From the NCBI RefSeq assembly GCF_988242995.1, contig NZ_OZ547043.1: a DNA stretch of 64,000 nucleotides; one strand, 5' to 3'. Below are positions 1,390 through 54,260 of the stretch, one piece after another. The translations under genes were made by a program, and so were the position numbers. Every line of letters begins with the position of its first letter. The stretch's first letter is position 1. The notes under the pieces are model-generated. The model was not told where the DNA came from, did not search any database, and was given only the letters and a program-made list of their open reading frames with translations.

Positions 1390-2085
1390 TTAAACCGGCG
1401 GCAGATCGAACAGTAACACTTCGCTGTCGCTATCCGCATGAATGGAGATTGCCTGCTCATCCCAGATTGCCAGACCATCGCTGGTCGAGGCTTTCACGCC
1501 GTTAATGGTGACATTGCCTTTCACCACCTGAATCCAGACGCGGCGTTCAGCGGCAATCTGATGCACCGACTGCTCATCTTTTACCAGCGCCCAGCGGTAC
1601 AGTTCCATATCCTGATACACTTTCAGCGAACCATCACGCGCATCCGGCGAGAGCACCAGCTGTTTGCCCTGTACGGCATCGAAGCGACGCTGTTCATAAC
1701 GCGGCGTAATACCGTTTTCTTCAGGCATGATCCAGATTTGATACAGATGCAGACGCTCGGTGCTGCTTGGGTTGTACTCTGAGTGACGAATACCCGTACC
1801 CGCACTCATAATCTGGAACTCACCCGCCGGAACCTGCTCTTTATTGCCCATGCTGTCCTGATGCTCAACAGTACCTTCCAGCACGTAGGTCAAAATTTCC
1901 ATATCTTTATGCGGGTGAGTGCCGAAGCCCTGCCCTGCTTCAATCACGTCGTCGTTAATCACGCGCAGCGCGGAGAAGCCCATAAAGTTCGGATCGTAAT
2001 AGTTGGCAAAAGAGAAAGTATGCCAGGAGTCCAGCCAGCCATGATTTGCATGACCACGTTCATTTGCTTTGCGTAAGTAGATCAT
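1390..2085 (-). CDS. yhhW: pirin-like quercetin 2,3-dioxygenase
   Basis: 231 aa ORF with cupin/pirin His motifs (GFGTHPHKDMEI); matches remembered YhhW. Confidence 0.9.
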   Translation of the reverse strand: MIYLRKANERGHANHGWLDSWHTFSFANYYDPNFMGFSALRVINDDVIEAGQGFGTHPHKDMEILTYVLEGTVEHQDSMGNKEQVPAGEFQIMSAGTGIRHSEYNPSSTERLHLYQIWIMPEENGITPRYEQRRFDAVQGKQLVLSPDARDGSLKVYQDMELYRWALVKDEQSVHQIAAERRVWIQVVKGNVTINGVKASTSDGLAIWDEQAISIHADSDSEVLLFDLPPV

Positions 2086-46640: not shown

Positions 46641-47765
46641 CGCCATTGTCCCAATCGTCTTCCTGAATCGCAGCAGTGCGATGGTGAAAAACGCGCCGCC
46701 AATTGCCATCAGCGTCAGGAACTGCGGCCAGACGATTTCGAATCCGGCACCACGGTAGAGAATGGCTTGCGCGAGGCTGACAAAGTGTGTCGTCGGCATG
46801 GTCAGCATAATGTCCTGCACCGTCTGCGGCATACTTTCGCGCGGCGTGGATCCACCGGAAAGCATTTGCAGCGGCAGCAGCACCAGAATCACCAGCAGCC
46901 CCAGTTGCGGCATTGAACGCGCTATCGTCCCCATAAAAATGCCAATTGACGTGGTGGCAAACAGACTGAGCGCCACGCCCAGCATAAATAGCGGGATCGA
47001 GCCTTCAATCGGTACGCCCAGCACGCCTTTCACCATCAGTACCAGCGATAATCCCGACACCACCAGCACCACCAACCCCATCGACCAGACCTTCGCCATC
47101 ATGATCTCAAACGGCGTTATCGGCATCACCAGTAAGTGTTCCACCGTGCCGTGTTCGCGCTCGCGGATCAGCGCCGATCCGGTCAGCACAATCGCCAGCA
47201 TGGTAATGTTGTTGATGATCGCCATCACCCCGCCAAACCACGCGGGATCGAGGTTCGGGTTAAAGCGCATCCGGGTTTCCAGCGATACCAACGGTTCGCT
47301 ATTATCACGGTAGCGCGCGACAAAGCTGTTCACTTCACCGTTGATAATATTCTGGATATAACCGTTGCCAGTGAATGCCTGGCTCATGCGCGTGGCATCG
47401 ACGTTCACCTGAATATCCGGCTGGCGTCCGGCGAGGACATCACGCTGAAAATTAGGCGGAATATTTATCGCGAAGGTATAGCGTCCGGCGTCCAGTCCGG
47501 CATCCATCTCATCGGCGGTGATCATCTCCGGTGGCAAAAACCACGGGCGATAGAAGCTGTTAACGATCCGGTTCGACAACTGCGATTGATCCATATCGGC
47601 TATGGCGATCGGCGCGAGGTTCAACGATCCTGGCGTGACGGTCGCTGACGAATACACCGATACCGTAAACGAGAAAACAATCAACGTCAGCATCGCTTTA
47701 TCACCGAGCAGACTGCGCAACTCTTTGATACCCAGATTAAAAATATTGCGTAAATGGCGCATCAT
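46638..47765 (-). CDS. yhhJ: ABC-2 type transporter permease
   Basis: Start refined to [12 protein letters not shown] (4-bp overlap with rbbA); about 375 aa membrane protein. Confidence 0.9.
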
Positions 47766-50497
47766 CCCTCCTGTTTTTTCAGCAGCAGGATGCTTAAGCC
47801 CATCACCAGCGGGATGGCTATCAGCAGCGGGATAAAAAGTTGCCACAAATCAGTCAGATCCAGCGCTTTCGAGAACGTCCCGCGGGCGATAGTCAGAAAA
47901 TGACTGGTCGGGTAAACCTCGCCGATCCAGCGTCCTGGACCTTCCAGCGAAGCTACCGGATCGATCATCCCGGAAAACTGTGTCGCCGGGATCAACGTGA
48001 TAATCGCCGTACCGAAAATGGCGGCAATCTGGCTTTTCATAAAGGTGGAGATCAGCAGCCCCATTCCGGTGGCAATGATGATATACAGCAGCGCCGCCAG
48101 GGTGAGCGTCAGGAAACTACCTTTATGCGGTACGCCAAACACAAACACCGACAGGCCGCAGAGCAGGAAAAAGTTCAGCATCCCCAGCGCGATGTACGGC
48201 AGCTGTTTGCCAAGCAAAAATTCGCTACGGGTGGTGGGTGTCACGTAAAGGTTGATAATCGACCCTAGCTCTTTTTCCCGCACCACGCTAAGAGCGCTTA
48301 GCATTGACGGGATCATCATCAGCAGAAGCGGGATCACCGCCGGAACAATCGCTGGCAGGCTTTTTACATCCGGGTTATAGCGATAGCGCGTCTCAATATT
48401 CATCAGCCCGTTTTGGCTGGCGGGCGTGGATTGTCGGCTCGCTACATCCTGTAACCAGCTCTGGTGCATAGCCTGCACGTAGCCTTTTACCGTTTCGGCG
48501 CGGCTCGGCATCGCACCATCGATCCAGACACCGAGTTCCACGGGTGTACCACGCGCGATATCGCGCCCGAAATTGGGAGGGATCTCAATCGCCACCGTGA
48601 TATCGCCCGCACGCATTCGACGATCAAGCTCGTCATAACTGGTGAGCGGCGGCTGTTCGATAAAGTAACGGGAACCGGAGAGATTGAGCGTCCACGCCTG
48701 GCTACTGACGGTCTGGTCGCGGTCAAGCACCGCAAAGCGCAGGTTTTCCACATCCATATTGATGCCGTAACCCATTATCAGCATCAGGATCACCGTTCCC
48801 ATCAGCGCCAGCGTCGAACGTACCGGATCGCGTCGCAGTTCCAGCGCTTCGCGGCGGCTGTAGCTAAACAGACGGCGCAGGCTAAATCCCTGACGCGGCG
48901 CGTGGGTGGTGTCGTGTATCACGGGCGGCGCTTCGGCTTCGTTGCTCTGCCCTGCCGCTTCCTGCAAATAGGCGATAAATGCCTCTTCCAGACTTGCGGC
49001 TCCGCGTTTCTCAACCAGTTCCTGCGGTGTACCGCTGGCAAGCACTTTTCCGGCGTGCATCAGGGAGATGCGGTCGCAACGTTCCGCTTCGTTCATAAAG
49101 TGGGTGGAGATGAAGATAGTCACTTTGTCCTGACGCGAGAGATCGACCATCAACTGCCAGAACATATCCCTCGCCACCGGATCGACACCAGAAGTAGGCT
49201 CATCGAGGATTAACATCTCCGGGCGATGAATCACCGCCACCGCCAGCGAAAGCCGCTGGCGAATGCCGAGCGGTAATGACTCAGGCAATACATCTTCAAC
49301 GTCGTTGAGCTTAAAACGCTCGCTCATTTCAGCCACTCGCGCGGGAATTTCCGCTTCCGGGATATGAAACAAACGGGCATGTAACTCCAGGTTTTGCCGC
49401 ACGGTGAGTTCGTTATAGAGCGAAAACGCCTGCGACATATAGCCCACCCGACGGCGGGTATCGATATCTTTTGGATCAACCGGTTGCCCGAACAGCCACG
49501 CCTCACCTTCGCTGGCAGGCAGCAGTCCGGTAAGCATTTTCATGGTGGTGGATTTACCGCAGCCGTTCGAACCGAGGAATCCAAAAATCTCCCCGCGTGG
49601 AATGCGGAAATTGACGTGATCAACGGCAATGAAGGAACCAAAACGCATGGTCAGATCGCGCGCTTCGATGGCAATCTCTGCGTTTTCCGGTTGATATGGT
49701 GGGATCACTACCGCCTGATGCGCCTGGCGTTGCGCTTGCGGTAACAGATTTATAAACGCCTCTTCCAGCGTCGCACTTTGCGTTTGCTGCCGCAGCTCTT
49801 CGGCGCTGCCGGTTGCCAGCACTTCTCCGGCATTCATCGCTACCAGCCAGTCGAAGCGTTCGGCCTCTTCCATATAGGCGGTGGCGACCAGCACGCTCAT
49901 ATTGCTCTGCCGCTGGCGAATACTGTCGATCAGATCCCAGAACTGGGCACGGGAGAGCGGGTCAACCCCCGTTGTTGGCTCATCAAGAATCAACAGTTCC
50001 GGGTCGTGGATTAACGCACAGCACAGCCCAAGTTTTTGCTTCATCCCGCCGGAGAGTTTACCTGCCGGACGATCGCGAAACGGTGCTAACCCGGTGCTGG
50101 TCAGCAGCTCATTAATTCGCACTTCCCGCTCCGCTTTGTCGTGACCGAACAGGCGGGCGAAAAAATCGACGTTTTCATACACCGACAAGGTGTGGTAGAG
50201 GTTTTTGCCCAGCCCTTGCGGCATCCAGGCGATGCGCGGGCAAACGTCACGGCGATGCTTCGGGTCGCGCATATCGCCGCCCAGCACGATCACATTGCCC
50301 TGCTCAATGACACGAGCACCGGAAATCAATGACAATAAACTCGACTTCCCGACGCCATCCGGACCAATCAGCCCAACCATGCAGCGGGCCGGAATATCGA
50401 GAGTGATATTGTTCAGCGCAACGGTTTTTCCATAATGCTGGCTCACGCCCGCCAGTTGCGCGACAGGCGGGACGGGAACCAGTTCCAGATGCGTCAT
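47762..50497 (-). CDS. rbbA: ribosome-associated ATPase, fused tandem ABC ATPase plus permease domain
   Basis: 911 aa; two Walker A motifs ([18 protein letters not shown]), two LSGG signatures, C-terminal ABC-2 membrane domain. Confidence 0.95.
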
Positions 50498-51561
50498 TGC
50501 GGCAACCTCACCACCAGGTCGTCAGGCCACGGAAGTTCTTCATTCACCCGCACCCACGCTACGCCCGGCAAACCGGTTTTGACATATTCCAGATGCTGCT
50601 GGAGTAATTCCGGTGGGATACGCGCTTTGACGCGGAACATCAGTTTCAGCCGCTCATCGCTGGTTTCGACGGTTTTTGGCGTGAACTGGGCGACGCTGGC
50701 GACAAAACTGATGGTTGCAGGAATACGCAGATCTGGCGCGGCATCGAGGATCAGCCGGGCTTCACCGCCCAGTTTCAGCGTGCCCGCCTGTTCGGTTGGC
50801 AGGAAGAAGGTCATATAGACGTCGCTCAGATCGACCATATTCAGCACCCGACCGCCTGCCGCCAGCACTTCCCCTGGCTCGGCAACCCGATACTGCACGC
50901 GTCCGTCACGCGGGGCTTTCAGTTCGCTGTCATCGATATCTGCGGCAATGCGCCGTTCAGTGGCTTGTGCGGCTTCGACGCGTGTTTGCGCCTGAATGAT
51001 ATTGGTGCGTGCCGCTTCTATAGCGGCTTTAGAAGCCGAAACCTGGGCTTTTGCTGATTCCAGCGCAGCTCGGGCGCTCTCAGCGGCGGCGCGATCGTCA
51101 TCCAGCTGTTGCGCAGAAATAGCCCCTCGTTGGGCGAGCGAGCGGGAACGCGTATGACGTTTGGCAACGGAGTCCAGTTCGGCCTGGCGTTGATTGACCA
51201 GCGACTGTGCGGCACGAGTTTCGCTTTGGCGTTGCTCCAGCAAAGCCTGCGCGGCGGCAACGGCGCTTTGTGCTTCTTTGATTTGCGCGATGGCTTCCAG
51301 TCGCTGTTCCTGCAACACGCGAGTATCCATCTTCGCCAGCACTTCACCTTCGCGAACAAACTGGCCTTCTTTCACCAGAATGGTGTCGATACGCCCGGCA
51401 ATTTTGCTGGCGATATCCACTTCCGTCGCTTCAATGCGCCCATTGCTGACGGCAAAGCCTTCCGGCACACCCGCTGGGCGCAACAGCCACCACGCCACGA
51501 TAGCGGCCACCGCCAGTAACCCGACAACCCACCACGCCAGATGGCGCTTACTCTTATCCAT
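50494..51561 (-). CDS. yhiI: HlyD-family membrane fusion protein
   Basis: 355 aa; N-terminal TM anchor then long coiled-coil; 4-bp overlap with rbbA. Confidence 0.92.
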
Positions 51562-52029
51562 AATCGACCCGCCATAATCCCTGTAAGCAAACGACGCGTG
51601 TTACAACTGCCGCCGAACGACGTTCAGCGGATTCTTCCATCCGGGATAAGAAGGAAACGGCAAATACGACCAGCGCGCAGAGCATTGAGCGCCAACGTGG
51701 AAGGCTTAGTGAAAACGGGTAGTAATGTTGTCATCATCAGCATTCCTGGCCGTAAATGAAACACGCATACTCATAAGTGTGATCTATAAAACTGGCTGAC
51801 AAAACGGTATCCATCCTGTTGGATAGCGTTTCACGCCTGTTCAGTTGCAGGAACAGAGCATTCCTTATTACGTTTTATCAACAGTCTCAACCAGATAGTA
51901 ACATTAATATTCATGTTGTCTATGGTTCAGAGCTGTAACATTGTGCGCCTTCTAATCAAAGGCATAAGTCCATTTTTGTTTTTTTCATGCTGGTAAGACT
52001 TCCAGGGAGTGGTTATCTCAGGCCCTGCA

Positions 52030-52745
52030 CCAGGGTTAATTTGGCAATAAATATCCTCCGGCATAGCCGGAGGTTTTTCAAATGCGCCTATAAGGCTCTC
52101 TTACCAGCCGCGCCCTAACAGGCGCACACGATCTGACATTTGCATCCAACTTCGTTACTTACGGCCCGTAAACGGGCTGCCCGGATAGGGAATCGATAAC
52201 TGCTCTCCCATTTTATCCTCTTCAAGCTGGTGCTTTATGTAATCCTGTATCTTCGCCGTGTTCTTACCCACTGTATCGACGTAGTACCCTCTGCACCAGA
52301 ACTCCCTGTTCCTGTATTTGAATTTCAAATCACCAAACTGCTCGTAAAGCATCAGACTGCTTTTCCCTTTCAGATATCCCATAAAGCCGGATACGCTCAT
52401 TTTGGGCGGGATCTCCACAAGCATATGGATATAATCTGCACAGCATTCAGCTTCCAGAATCCGTACGCTTTTCCACTCACACAGCTTTCTCAAAATACTG
52501 CCTATTGCTCTACGCTTCTCTCTGTAGAACACCTGTCTTCGGTATTTTGGCGCAAAAACTATGTGATATTTACAGTTCCATCGGGTGTGCGCTAAGCTCT
52601 TTTCGTTCCCCATTGGGACCCCCTTTTGATTTCTTGTTTGACACTTGCAGTTGCCAGACCGCAAAGTGTTTTAACAAATCAAAAGGGGTTTTAATAACTG
52701 GCTCAAAGCTGAAAGCTTTCCGGAACCCCCAGCCTAGCTGGGGGT
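52030..52745 (-). mobile_element. IS200-like insertion sequence (IS200/IS605 family, tnpA only); boundaries approximate
   Basis: About 0.7 kb element containing a Y1/HUH transposase gene, with a perfect GC-rich hairpin (aacccccagc cta gctgggggtt) at the tnpA-upstream end as in IS200 left ends; absent from the K-12 arrangement. Confidence 0.7.
52155..52613 (-). CDS. tnpA: IS200/IS605-family Y1 (HUH) transposase TnpA
   Basis: 152 aa from MGNEKSLAHTRWNCKYHIVFAPKYRR; HUH-type motif (YIHMLV) and catalytic Tyr region; start refined from ORF 52155-52664. Confidence 0.85.
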   Translation of the reverse strand: MGNEKSLAHTRWNCKYHIVFAPKYRRQVFYREKRRAIGSILRKLCEWKSVRILEAECCADYIHMLVEIPPKMSVSGFMGYLKGKSSLMLYEQFGDLKFKYRNREFWCRGYYVDTVGKNTAKIQDYIKHQLEEDKMGEQLSIPYPGSPFTGRK

Positions 52746-54260
52746 TTTCTGTGCACAATTATGCATGCTGAACATTCTTCCAGCATGTTTACTGTCACGG
52801 GCGTTAAGACCTAAAACTGTCCCCGTTTCACCTATGCGTTCTCTTCCACCATTACCGTTATGTGCAACAACTTGATTTATACCTAACATTTGTGAGCATG
52901 CTAATAGTTCTTCAAGTTTCGGTCTGTAATCTGTCGAAACAGAAAAATAACGATTAAAGGATCGACAAGAGATAGCCCGGCTAGTTTTAAACTTTTTACC
53001 ATTAATGATGGCATGATGCTTCTTATTAATAATTGCCGCTAATTCGACCGGATCGAGAGCATTGGTCATTTCATCAATAGAGACTGTTATCGGTCCTATA
53101 ATGTAACGTTTTCGCTGATCATCAAAAGTTATCCCATGATGATTTGCCATTATTTTGTATTTGGGGTCATAGAAACATACAGGATAATCTTTTATCCCAG
53201 CGTAGGTATCCTCATCAAGTGGTTTCATACGCGTGAAGTTCTGCATATAGTTACCATTGCAATTCGTTTCATGATTACCAGCTAATACATGAACATTTTT
53301 ATTAATACTCATTATGCGTTTTAACAAATCGATGATAAATTGATCGCCACAGATATTACTAAATCGATCGCCGGTTTGGTCACCCAGAAACGTACATGGC
53401 GTCACTGCGCCCTGATTAATAACTAAATATGGCTGAAGACTTTCTAAAACCACATCTCTTCTGTTCAGAATACTGATTATTGTATTAACATTAATGTCTA
53501 GTTCCTCATTAATTTTTTCCCTTAATAAAACGTTGAGAACTTCATCTTCTATATTAAGCAACTGGCTAAGAAAATTTACTTCTTCAGCCATAATTCCCAA
53601 ATGTCCCGTTGCGAAAAGCGCGTACAAAACTGCACCGACTGAGCCATCGGTATCACCAAAATAGGTTGGTCTGGTACTTGTGGGATCAACGGGTGAACAA
53701 TTGGAGAAATAGATTCTGTCAGCGAACTGGGGTTTTATAATTGTTTCGAATTTAATATCAGATACATTGTATTGCGATATTTTCCAGTTCCAGATGGGTT
53801 TGTACGACTCAGTAACTGCAACATCATTAGCATTATCATTTACTGTCATATTATTAAGTAAATAAACAATGCTGCACCAATTAATATCGGTATCATCAAG
53901 AGGGCAACCGTAATTTTTACTATTAATTGTCACAATAAACTGATAACTATTATTCCTACGTAGAATATGGGCACGCATGCCCGATAGCATACTATATTTT
54001 TCTGAATGATTCGTTTCTATGGTAAATGAAATTTTGTCATCTTGAAAAGATTGTTGGAAACGTTCTATTTGCCAATCATCAATTTTTTCCACAACTTCAC
54101 CGAGCATTGTCCTGGCAATACTTGATATATCATCACCTATACCATTTGCAATATACCCAAACAGTTCTTTAGTGAAGTTAGTAACATGCTCTTGCACCAT
54201 ATCATTTGTTGCGATAGTCGTTATACTGTCGTTAGTACCTGCCACAGTTCCAATTTTCAT
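52734..54260 (-). CDS. yhiJ: DUF4049-type protein with C-terminal PPP-like metallophosphoesterase motifs; 3' end abuts or is altered by the IS200 end
   Basis: 508 aa; motifs GDTDG, GDQTGDRF, LAGNHE in PPP order; SD GAGGT upstream; paralog of the next gene; AT-rich. Confidence 0.8.
   Translation of the reverse strand: MKIGTVAGTNDSITTIATNDMVQEHVTNFTKELFGYIANGIGDDISSIARTMLGEVVEKIDDWQIERFQQSFQDDKISFTIETNHSEKYSMLSGMRAHILRRNNSYQFIVTINSKNYGCPLDDTDINWCSIVYLLNNMTVNDNANDVAVTESYKPIWNWKISQYNVSDIKFETIIKPQFADRIYFSNCSPVDPTSTRPTYFGDTDGSVGAVLYALFATGHLGIMAEEVNFLSQLLNIEDEVLNVLLREKINEELDINVNTIISILNRRDVVLESLQPYLVINQGAVTPCTFLGDQTGDRFSNICGDQFIIDLLKRIMSINKNVHVLAGNHETNCNGNYMQNFTRMKPLDEDTYAGIKDYPVCFYDPKYKIMANHHGITFDDQRKRYIIGPITVSIDEMTNALDPVELAAIINKKHHAIINGKKFKTSRAISCRSFNRYFSVSTDYRPKLEELLACSQMLGINQVVAHNGNGGRERIGETGTVLGLNARDSKHAGRMFSMHNCAQKTPS

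Follow-up and report, generated by a model that had tools for sequence, protein, structure and literature searches.

The yhiY upstream open reading frame of the yhiI-rbbA-yhhJ operon: a translated small gene conserved at its start, and its candidate role in Rho-dependent control

Locus organization

The window, which is the whole stretch of 64,000 nucleotides of contig NZ_OZ547043.1 (RefSeq assembly GCF_988242995.1) that was analysed, carries the genes yhiI and rbbA of the yhiI-rbbA-yhhJ operon on its minus strand, preceded by a leader with a promoter, a short upstream open reading frame (uORF) and several predicted RNA elements. The coordinates of these features are summarized in Table 1.

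Table 1. Features of the yhiY-yhiI leader and of the adjoining operon genes, in window coordinates
Feature	Position	Strand	Basis and remarks
Predicted sigma-70-type promoter of the yhiY-yhiI transcript	51895..51922	-	Promoter scan; homologous ATAGACA-N17-TAGTAT kept in other genera
Leader insert of ~103 nt, directly after the -10 hexamer	51792..51894	-	Genome comparison, folding
Conserved block 1 (yhiY SD, start codons and first 7 codons)	51717..51776	-	Nucleotide-level identity across genera
Start-codon hairpin (predicted)	51725..51764	-	RNAalifold consensus; GUGU.UCAUU pairs with GAUGA..ACAU
C-rich, G-poor zone, yhiY codons 1-20, candidate Rho-loading (rut) region	51679..51738	-	Composition scan: C 30-35%, G 12-17%
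yhiY CDS, 37 codons plus UGA	51624..51737	-	ORF reading, RefSeq, Pfam, start profiling, mass spectrometry
Hairpin P1, 3' part of yhiY (UUUCC.UCU / GGA.GGAAG)	51634..51657	-	95.8% of cells paired; one pair changed on both sides
Hairpin P2, encloses the yhiY UGA (CCGCUGAAC / GUUCGGC.GG)	51610..51630	-	9 pairs, 96.3% of cells paired
yhiI translation-initiation region	51559..51573	-	Weak SD-like GGCGGG 51573-51568, ATG 51561-51559
Third hairpin, yhiI codons 5-10	51534-51547	-	Same 16-sequence pairing test as P1 and P2
yhiI, HlyD-family membrane-fusion protein	50494..51561	-	ORF list and RefSeq; first large gene of the operon
rbbA, next in the operon after yhiI	47762..50497	-	ORF list, RefSeq

The leader reads gccAGGAatgctgATGATGaca... 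on the minus strand. ATG ATG at 51737-51732 is separated by a 6-nt spacer from AGGA at 51747-51744 and opens a frame that encodes MMTTLLPVFTKPSTLALNALRAGRICRFLLIPDGRIR and closes with TGA at 51626-51624. The sequence-only reading had reported a 37-codon minus-strand frame with an ATG-ATG start behind AGGA, and its coordinates, 51737..51624, proved exact on re-reading. It had also placed the end of the frame about 60 nt before yhiI, in good agreement with the measured distance of 62 nt to the yhiI ATG, on the strand shared by yhiI and rbbA. Further in-frame starts lie upstream, namely a third ATG at 51743 and a GTG at 51764, the latter giving 46 aa.

The predicted promoter consists of a -35 hexamer TAGACA, a 16-nt spacer containing TG, and a -10 hexamer TACTAT. 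The primer used for a published yhiI 5'UTR fusion starts with GAGACTGTTG (PMC7815308), which corresponds to window position 51888; this position lies 7 nt past the predicted -10 hexamer, and the transcription start is therefore put at approximately 51888.

The leader insert listed in Table 1 has self-pairing ends and a predicted fold in the form of a closed multi-branch stem; with it, the yhiY 5' UTR measures about 151 nt instead of about 45 nt. Of 5426 E. coli genomes, 4282 have the insert, each in one copy, and it is missing from E. coli 19AR1724 and from E. albertii. An interpretation of the insert as a mobile miniature repeat was rejected, as it occurs once per genome and only together with the yhiJ configuration.

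The yhiI initiation region is nearly invariant in the clade of Escherichia, Citrobacter and Salmonella, and is predicted to be mostly paired in Escherichia.

Identity and expression of yhiY

Taken alone, the yhiY ORF is not above chance expectation: 56 ORFs of at least 20 aa were counted within 3.5 kb, and three others, of 43-72 aa, overlap the yhiY leader. It is raised above chance by external evidence, namely the RefSeq annotation, a Pfam family, ribosome profiling, mass spectrometry and a start region conserved across genera. A megablast search with window positions 51450-52000 gave matches in 5412 of 5426 complete E. coli genomes, one apiece, and the matched feature was 'yhiY: protein YhiY' in 29 of 30 sampled rows. 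The RefSeq yhiY CDS, at 1764..1877 of the locus in strain 7/2 and K-12, corresponds to 51737..51624 of the window. The DNA of strain 7/2 is 100% identical to the window, and the window peptide agrees with RefSeq WP_001315057.1 of that strain in 37 of 37 residues. Against Pfam PF23514 ('YhiY') the peptide scored 98.7 bits (cutoff 27), with residues 1-37 aligned on profile positions 1-37, while a scan of the peptide against NCBIfam matched no family. The exact peptide is publicly catalogued as 'protein YhiY' on at least 1000 contigs. The gene is the same as yhiY of E. coli K-12 (PF23514, YHIY_ECOLI, ORF9) and has the identical position relative to yhiI. The UniProt entry YHIY_ECOLI represents the K-12 allele with P14; the window differs from it in one residue, T14, and additionally has an IS200 element inside yhiJ, 127 bp upstream of the -35 hexamer of the promoter.

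The gene was found as ORF9/yhiY by Weaver et al. in 2019 (bioRxiv 10.1101/511675) by ribosome profiling with Onc112 and retapamulin, which assigned initiation to the second of the three in-frame AUGs; in the same study, 36 of 38 chromosomally SPA-tagged candidates were detected. Initiation-site profiling of this kind had been named as a check in the sequence-only reading. A proteomic study of 2025 (PMC12529367) observed YhiY by top-down mass spectrometry, in intact form, as well as by DIA and PRM, and estimated its abundance at approximately 1000-3000 copies per cell.

Identification of the 37-codon frame as yhiY, a genuinely translated small gene, is essentially certain. The finding is real and already known, with a Pfam family and with annotation since 2019. 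The sequence-only reading had left the choice between a regulatory leader peptide and chance; the annotated and experimentally detected gene, which that reading had not recognised, removes chance, and the regulatory half stands as plausible in view of published work on Rho in this leader. Adams et al. (2021, PMC7815308) mapped by Term-seq an RNA 3' end at -43 from the yhiI ATG, scored as Rho-dependent and flagged 'uORF', and a second one at -65. Their yhiI 5'UTR+ORF-lacZ fusion increased more than 2-fold in rhoR66S. In their list of nine uncharacterised uORFs that are followed by a 3' end at a distance of less than 200 nt, yhiY-yhiI appears as a candidate uORF-dependent site; a regulatory link from yhiY to yhiI, which is plausible, has already been suggested in print.

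Conservation of the upstream reading frame

The comparative set consisted of yhiI loci from one genome per species, comprising 24 Enterobacteriaceae leaders (the window included) and Hafnia. An SD followed by AUG-AUG and ACN-ACN, encoding MMTT, was found in 23 of the 24 Enterobacteriaceae leaders, and the start is followed by an open frame of at least 37 codons in 22 of these 23. Kluyvera has ACG-AUG-ACC-ACA-UGA, a uORF of 3 codons, and Hafnia carries a uORF of 50 codons (MKTSIV...) at the position equivalent to yhiY.

What is conserved is the start of the uORF, not its frame, length or sequence. The 37-codon form is that of Escherichia. The uORF has 45 codons in S. diarizonae, C. amalonaticus and Pseudocitrobacter, with the C-terminal F(L/P)LIP(D/E)G..R retained despite a 24-nt in-frame indel, and 46 codons in six species of the C. 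freundii group, where a 1-nt deletion leads to a different C-terminus (...SRMESPAE) and the nucleotides encoding FLLIPDG are still present, out of frame. Escherichia sp. E1V33 has a frameshifted uORF of 45 codons. In the Klebsiella oxytoca group, Raoultella and Enterobacter sp. 10-1 the uORF comprises 78-98 codons and ends 67-131 nt past the yhiI ATG; the peptides of Klebsiella and Raoultella are unrelated to that of yhiY beyond residue 5. Where the uORF ends before yhiI, its stop is 59-64 nt from the yhiI start. The only motif common to all uORF peptides is MMTTL(L/I). Four lineages (Escherichia, S. diarizonae, C. amalonaticus and Pseudocitrobacter) have kept the motif FLLIP(D/E)G in frame; the C. 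freundii group and E1V33 carry it out of frame, and Klebsiella lacks it. Within E. coli, a frameshift allele of 63 aa was found on 52 contigs. In one E. coli strain, IS1 is inserted in yhiY, and rbbA is a pseudogene there as well.

Only Escherichia peptides pass the PF23514 threshold. Those of Citrobacter, Salmonella and Pseudocitrobacter reach 10.9-24.4 bits, mostly over residues 1-15, and those of Klebsiella, Raoultella and Hafnia give no score. Between Escherichia lineages, ω (Nei-Gojobori) is 0.26-0.70 for yhiY, an estimate that rests on 8-10 substitutions per pair, versus 0.01-0.03 for yhiI. This comparison of synonymous with non-synonymous changes, of the kind that the sequence-only reading had proposed, shows far less constraint on the YhiY peptide than on YhiI. 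The first 39 nt of yhiY are invariant between Escherichia lineages, and the substitutions cluster in codons 14-22. Across eight other genus-level lineages, identity to the window is 0.81-0.95 in block 1 (51776-51717); it drops to 0.24-0.36 in the middle of yhiY and returns to 0.5-0.8 between 51656 and the start of yhiI. In the same comparison, identity at codon positions 1, 2 and 3 of yhiI is 0.85, 0.87 and 0.54. Identity is lowest in the middle of yhiY, and in several lineages the frame is broken or altered in length with the nucleotide blocks kept; the constraint therefore acts at the nucleotide level, on the two end regions of the ORF, and not on the protein. Of the conservation in relatives by which the sequence-only reading would have judged the frame, the start was confirmed and the frame and peptide were not. 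The lack of a conserved frame argues against a conserved function of the peptide, not against translation or a role in cis, and the pattern as a whole fits a cis-acting uORF better than a conserved protein.

These data bear directly on the view that YhiY functions by itself as a small protein, perhaps as a basic partner, 37 residues long, of the ribosome or of the YhiI-RbbA-YhhJ complex, for which the leader position would only ensure co-expression. The protein accumulates and is intact in top-down spectra (PMC12529367), it is represented by a curated Pfam family and annotated in 29 of the 30 E. coli genomes sampled, and its F(L/P)LIP(D/E)G motif has stayed in frame across the 24-nt indel. However, ω is far above that of yhiI, genera share 24-36% identity in the middle part of the peptide, and the frame leading to the C-terminal motif has been lost in six species of the C. 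freundii group, in E1V33 and in the 63-aa allele of E. coli. The Klebsiella and Raoultella peptides diverge after five residues, that of Kluyvera has only three codons, the Pfam threshold is not reached outside Escherichia, and a hydrophobic helix is absent from the YhiY peptide. A stand-alone protein function is on this balance considered unlikely.

RNA elements of the leader

Block 1 is conserved in all three reading frames and reaches about 25 nt upstream of the SD. A consensus hairpin is predicted within it: UCAUU is paired to the last base of the first AUG, the entire second AUG and the following A, and the SD AGGA (51747-51744) comes to lie in the apical loop. Single-sequence folds of this start-codon hairpin give -10 to -11.7 kcal/mol, no better than shuffled sequences (z about -0.7), and no covariation was seen in the RNAalifold consensus, the element being invariant. 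All eight variable columns fall among the 16 unpaired positions and none among the 24 paired ones (hypergeometric P about 1.7e-4), a test in which the SD and AUG are also constrained for other reasons. It is proposed that the non-coding 5' arm is frozen because it is paired to start-codon nucleotides that cannot change.

The same block is an argument for regarding translation of yhiY as non-functional noise from a fortuitous SD-AUG, the conserved leader serving instead, for example, in protein or small-RNA binding: conservation in every frame and upstream of the SD, a poorly conserved peptide and an ORF size that is not unusual in this sequence all speak for it. Such a view has to contend with the retention of SD, spacing and AUG-AUG in 23 of 24 leaders, nearly always ahead of an open frame, with translation strong enough for detection by mass spectrometry, and with a C-over-G zone that falls in the uORF in every leader with a located uORF start. 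That the 5' arm does not vary can be accounted for by its pairing to the start codons. Noise is accordingly rated a quite improbable explanation. No claim is made for CsrA-type GGA motifs or for a complementarity of ACAACAUUAC to the GcvB seed.

Pairing further downstream was tested in 16 sequences of the clade formed by Escherichia, Salmonella, Citrobacter and Pseudocitrobacter. For three hairpins (P1, P2 and the one inside yhiI), 97% of cells are paired, versus 33-50% when the partners are slid, and exchanges occur at several pairs; in P2, GC/GU/AU exchanges were found at three pairs. The published 3' end at -65 corresponds to 51626, 8 nt past P1, and that at -43 to 51604, 6 nt past P2. Ends just past P1 and P2 would be the pattern expected of Rho-terminated RNA trimmed back to a protective stem. 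P2 is directly followed by CAGUUGUAAC, with no U-tract, and a terminator scan detected no intrinsic terminator between 51888 and 51561; its sole match, at 52055-52073, lies inside the IS200 element. Classical attenuation of the trpL/thrL type was rejected, the leader being without an intrinsic terminator and the peptide without a codon run. In a search of Rfam 15 the best scores were 17.6 bits for AdoCbl-II, against a gathering score of 36.5, and 13.2 bits for RefA5, against one of 91; both are chance-like. A structural-entropy riboswitch prediction that names yhiI was set aside as irrelevant, its site being about 6.6 kb away.

Positions 51738-51679 are the only C-rich, G-poor stretch of the leader, the spacer and the yhiI start being G-rich. 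The 60-nt window with the greatest excess of C over G lies within the uORF in 23 of 23 leaders in which the uORF start was located, even when the sequences cannot be aligned. The zone lies ahead of the published 3' ends, which, like the lack of an intrinsic terminator, is consistent with Rho-dependent termination. A rut role of this zone may be inferred from its composition, C-richness being required for a rut site, yet not specific to one.

A predicted long-range interaction was also considered. In the minimum-energy fold of E. coli, sequence internal to yhiY pairs with the yhiI start region, and in three Escherichia leaders the yhiI initiation region has a predicted probability of being unpaired of 0.20-0.36, which goes up to 0.43-0.46 once the uORF is masked. 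Together with the weak yhiI SD (GGCGGG), this would fit translational coupling, in which ribosomes on yhiY would melt a structure that hides the yhiI ribosome-binding site, and Rho-dependent termination would be secondary to poor translation of yhiI; topAI/toiL offers a literature precedent for the mechanism. However, no consistent opening is predicted in Salmonella, Citrobacter or Pseudocitrobacter, the pairing segment of E. coli belongs to the non-conserved middle of yhiY, and the consensus fold consists of local hairpins with no long-range clamp. The 59-64 nt between stop and start, and the Klebsiella uORF that runs well into yhiI, also speak against it. Because the modelled effect is confined to Escherichia, coupling is kept as a rival and not as the main model, and it is doubtful that it explains the leader.

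Proposed mechanism

Others have shown that yhiY is translated and its protein present, that the leader has Rho-dependent 3' ends, and that a rho mutation de-represses a yhiI fusion. Taken with the comparative data, these findings lead to the best-supported model, to which we give about an even chance of being correct: yhiY would be a cis-acting uORF whose translation shields a Rho-loading zone and thereby helps to set read-through into yhiI-rbbA-yhhJ. Transcription would start at the conserved promoter, near 51888, and ribosomes would initiate at AUG-AUG inside the conserved, weak hairpin, which would set the initiation rate or permit its modulation. Ribosomes translating yhiY would occupy the one stretch of the leader that is rich in C and poor in G. 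Poor translation of yhiY would let Rho load there and terminate transcription around or just inside the yhiI start, and the short terminated RNAs would be trimmed back to P1 or to P2, which holds the stop codon; when yhiY is translated well, more polymerases would proceed into yhiI-rbbA-yhhJ. We infer, in other words, that translation of yhiY controls the access of Rho and that the hairpins protect the resulting 3' ends. A trimmed short RNA carrying yhiY only would also account for the comparatively high abundance of YhiY. Overproduction of CspD leads to higher expression of the yhiY-associated operon (PMC9765468), an effect compatible with a structure-limited step.

Some observations speak against the cis-acting uORF. 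The approximately 1000-3000 copies of YhiY per cell may be above the expectation for a pure by-product. The F-L-L-I-P-D/E-G motif in frame in four lineages, across an indel whose 24 nt are a multiple of three, hints at some constraint on the peptide. The Rho effect in the published fusion could originate within the yhiI ORF, in which a BCM-sensitive 3' end has also been mapped (PMC7815308). A start-codon or stalling mutant of yhiY was not found in the papers searched.

A more far-reaching version of the cis-acting uORF would make the leader a composite RNA-plus-uORF sensor across Enterobacteriaceae, composed of the start-codon hairpin, the uORF-embedded Rho-loading zone and the stop-codon hairpin, in which ribosome occupancy of MMTTL reports translation stress. 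The stress could be, for example, that of ribosome-targeting antibiotics, or cold and RNA-chaperone status, and the response would be induction of an ABC-type exporter with RbbA, itself a ribosome-associated protein, as its ATPase. This extension is speculative and regarded as quite unlikely; if true, it would make yhiY a toiL-like, stress-sensing uORF for a translation-linked transporter.

Comparison with known leader systems

Like trpL, thrL, hisL and pyrL, yhiY is a leader peptide ORF upstream of an operon on the same transcript; unlike them, it lacks a terminator of hairpin and U-tract, has no regulatory codon run in MMTTLLPVFTKPSTLALNALRAGRICRFLLIPDGRIR, and is associated with termination that is Rho-dependent. 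In tnaC-tnaAB of E. coli, the leader peptide stalls at its UGA stop codon and in this way denies Rho access; the arrest sequence of TnaC is strictly conserved, and the rut/boxA site is located at and after the stop codon. The two leaders have in common a short ORF ending in UGA, Rho-dependent termination in the spacer and no intrinsic terminator. In yhiY, by contrast, it is the 5' half of the ORF that holds the C-rich zone, the UGA is part of a hairpin, and no arrest motif is clearly evident across the lineages.

The mdtU-mdtJI system of E. coli resembles yhiY-yhiI in its small validated uORF, long 5' UTR, transporter operon and downstream Rho-dependent 3' ends, and in a reporter that is de-repressed in rhoR66S (PMC7815308). 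For mdtU, start-codon mutants and the ligand spermidine have been tested, and the C-terminus of MdtU is conserved in at least 17 genera (PMC7815308), whereas conservation in yhiY is confined to the first 7 residues, and frameshifts alter the C-terminus of some lineages. The uORF toiL, upstream of topAI in E. coli, is reported (eLife 2025, PMC12121999) to sense ribosome-targeting antibiotics and to control Rho termination. Like yhiY, toiL is a short uORF before an operon under premature Rho termination, with the beginning of the uORF as its conserved part; stalling in toiL unmasks a downstream ribosome-binding site there, whereas for yhiY an unmasking model is unsupported across genera.

By analogy, yhiY most resembles in function the uORFs mdtU, tnaC and toiL, which gate Rho-dependent termination, and it differs from them in three respects: conservation is limited to its first few codons, its C-rich zone is internal to the ORF, and a conserved hairpin holds its stop codon.

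Biological significance

As a discovery, yhiY matters little, and its candidacy for uORF-linked termination had been proposed before. A modest addition made by the comparative data is that conservation attaches to translation as such and to its location, together with features of the RNA (the start-codon hairpin, the C-rich zone in the ORF, and the ORF-end hairpins at which the mapped 3' ends fall), and not to the peptide. If the proposed mechanism holds, yhiY would be one more case of Rho-coupled control by a uORF, and would help to establish when the poorly understood YhiI-RbbA-YhhJ system is expressed in E. coli.

Mobile element and leader insert upstream of yhiY

Comparison with the otherwise near-identical E. 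coli strain 7/2 showed that the 3' end of yhiJ is interrupted by a copy of IS200, which breaks the yhiJ frame at codon 508 of 540. The element lies upstream of the promoter of yhiY, the 37-codon upstream ORF in the yhiI-rbbA-yhhJ leader, at a distance of 127 bp from the -35 hexamer, and the terminator-like hairpin at 52055-52073 is part of the IS200 end. Downstream of the promoter, the 5' UTR of yhiY is lengthened by an insert of about 103 nt, whose two ends, GAGACUGUUGAUAAAACG and CGUUUUGUCAGCCAGUUUU, are complementary to one another. The insert is carried in one copy each by 4282 of the 5426 complete E. coli genomes searched, and is missing from E. albertii and from the E. coli lineages without yhiJ-yhiL. 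Coordinates are shown in the table below.

Features of the yhiY-yhiI leader and the adjacent yhiJ region
Feature	Window position	Strand	Remarks
IS200 copy, 707 nt	52049-52755	minus	tnpA 52613-52155; Y1_Tnp, PF01797, E = 5e-37
Leader insert, ~103 nt	~51792-51894	minus	immediately 3' of the -10 hexamer
25-codon ORF, MDTVLSASFIDHTYEYACFIYGQEC	51737-51814	minus	stop overlaps yhiY start codon (UGAUG)
CA-rich motif, ACAACAUUAC	51721-51731	minus	directly 3' of yhiY start codons
Antisense ORF, 72 codons	51541-51759	plus	covers yhiY and the entire yhiY-yhiI spacer
Motif, UACAGGGAU	51575-51585	minus	5' of yhiI SD
Hairpin, GCGCC AUCU GGCGU	51534-51547	minus	yhiI codons 5-10, just within the gene

Small ORFs, motifs and hairpin

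The UGAUG stop/start overlap is a typical layout for translational coupling. The 25-codon ORF that shares it with yhiY is probably due to chance, because its ATG lies inside the E. coli-specific insert and a spaced SD is absent. The antisense ORF would also be broken by the mid-yhiY indels of other genera. The two short motifs resemble GcvB-type and CsrA-type target motifs, a likeness which may be coincidental. In the 16 leaders of the Escherichia, Salmonella, Citrobacter and Pseudocitrobacter clade, the small hairpin within yhiI displays a compensatory UA/CG exchange as well as GC/GU variation; it could act as a pause site or affect yhiI initiation.

Distribution of the operon and examples of decay

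Among the 80 yhiI loci listed, close orthologues (L003-L039) were found in Escherichia, Citrobacter, Pseudocitrobacter, S. diarizonae, Kluyvera, the Klebsiella oxytoca group, Raoultella, Hafnia and Morganellaceae; K. pneumoniae, the Enterobacter cloacae complex and S. enterica subsp. enterica had no locus among the 80. The distribution of the yhiI operon is patchy. Inside E. coli there are examples of decay: strain E423 (locus L084, 792-1598) carries IS1 within the first yhiY codons, with rbbA being a pseudogene in the same strain, and a frameshifted YhiY allele of 63 aa (peptide P0003), present on 52 contigs, reaches the yhiI start.
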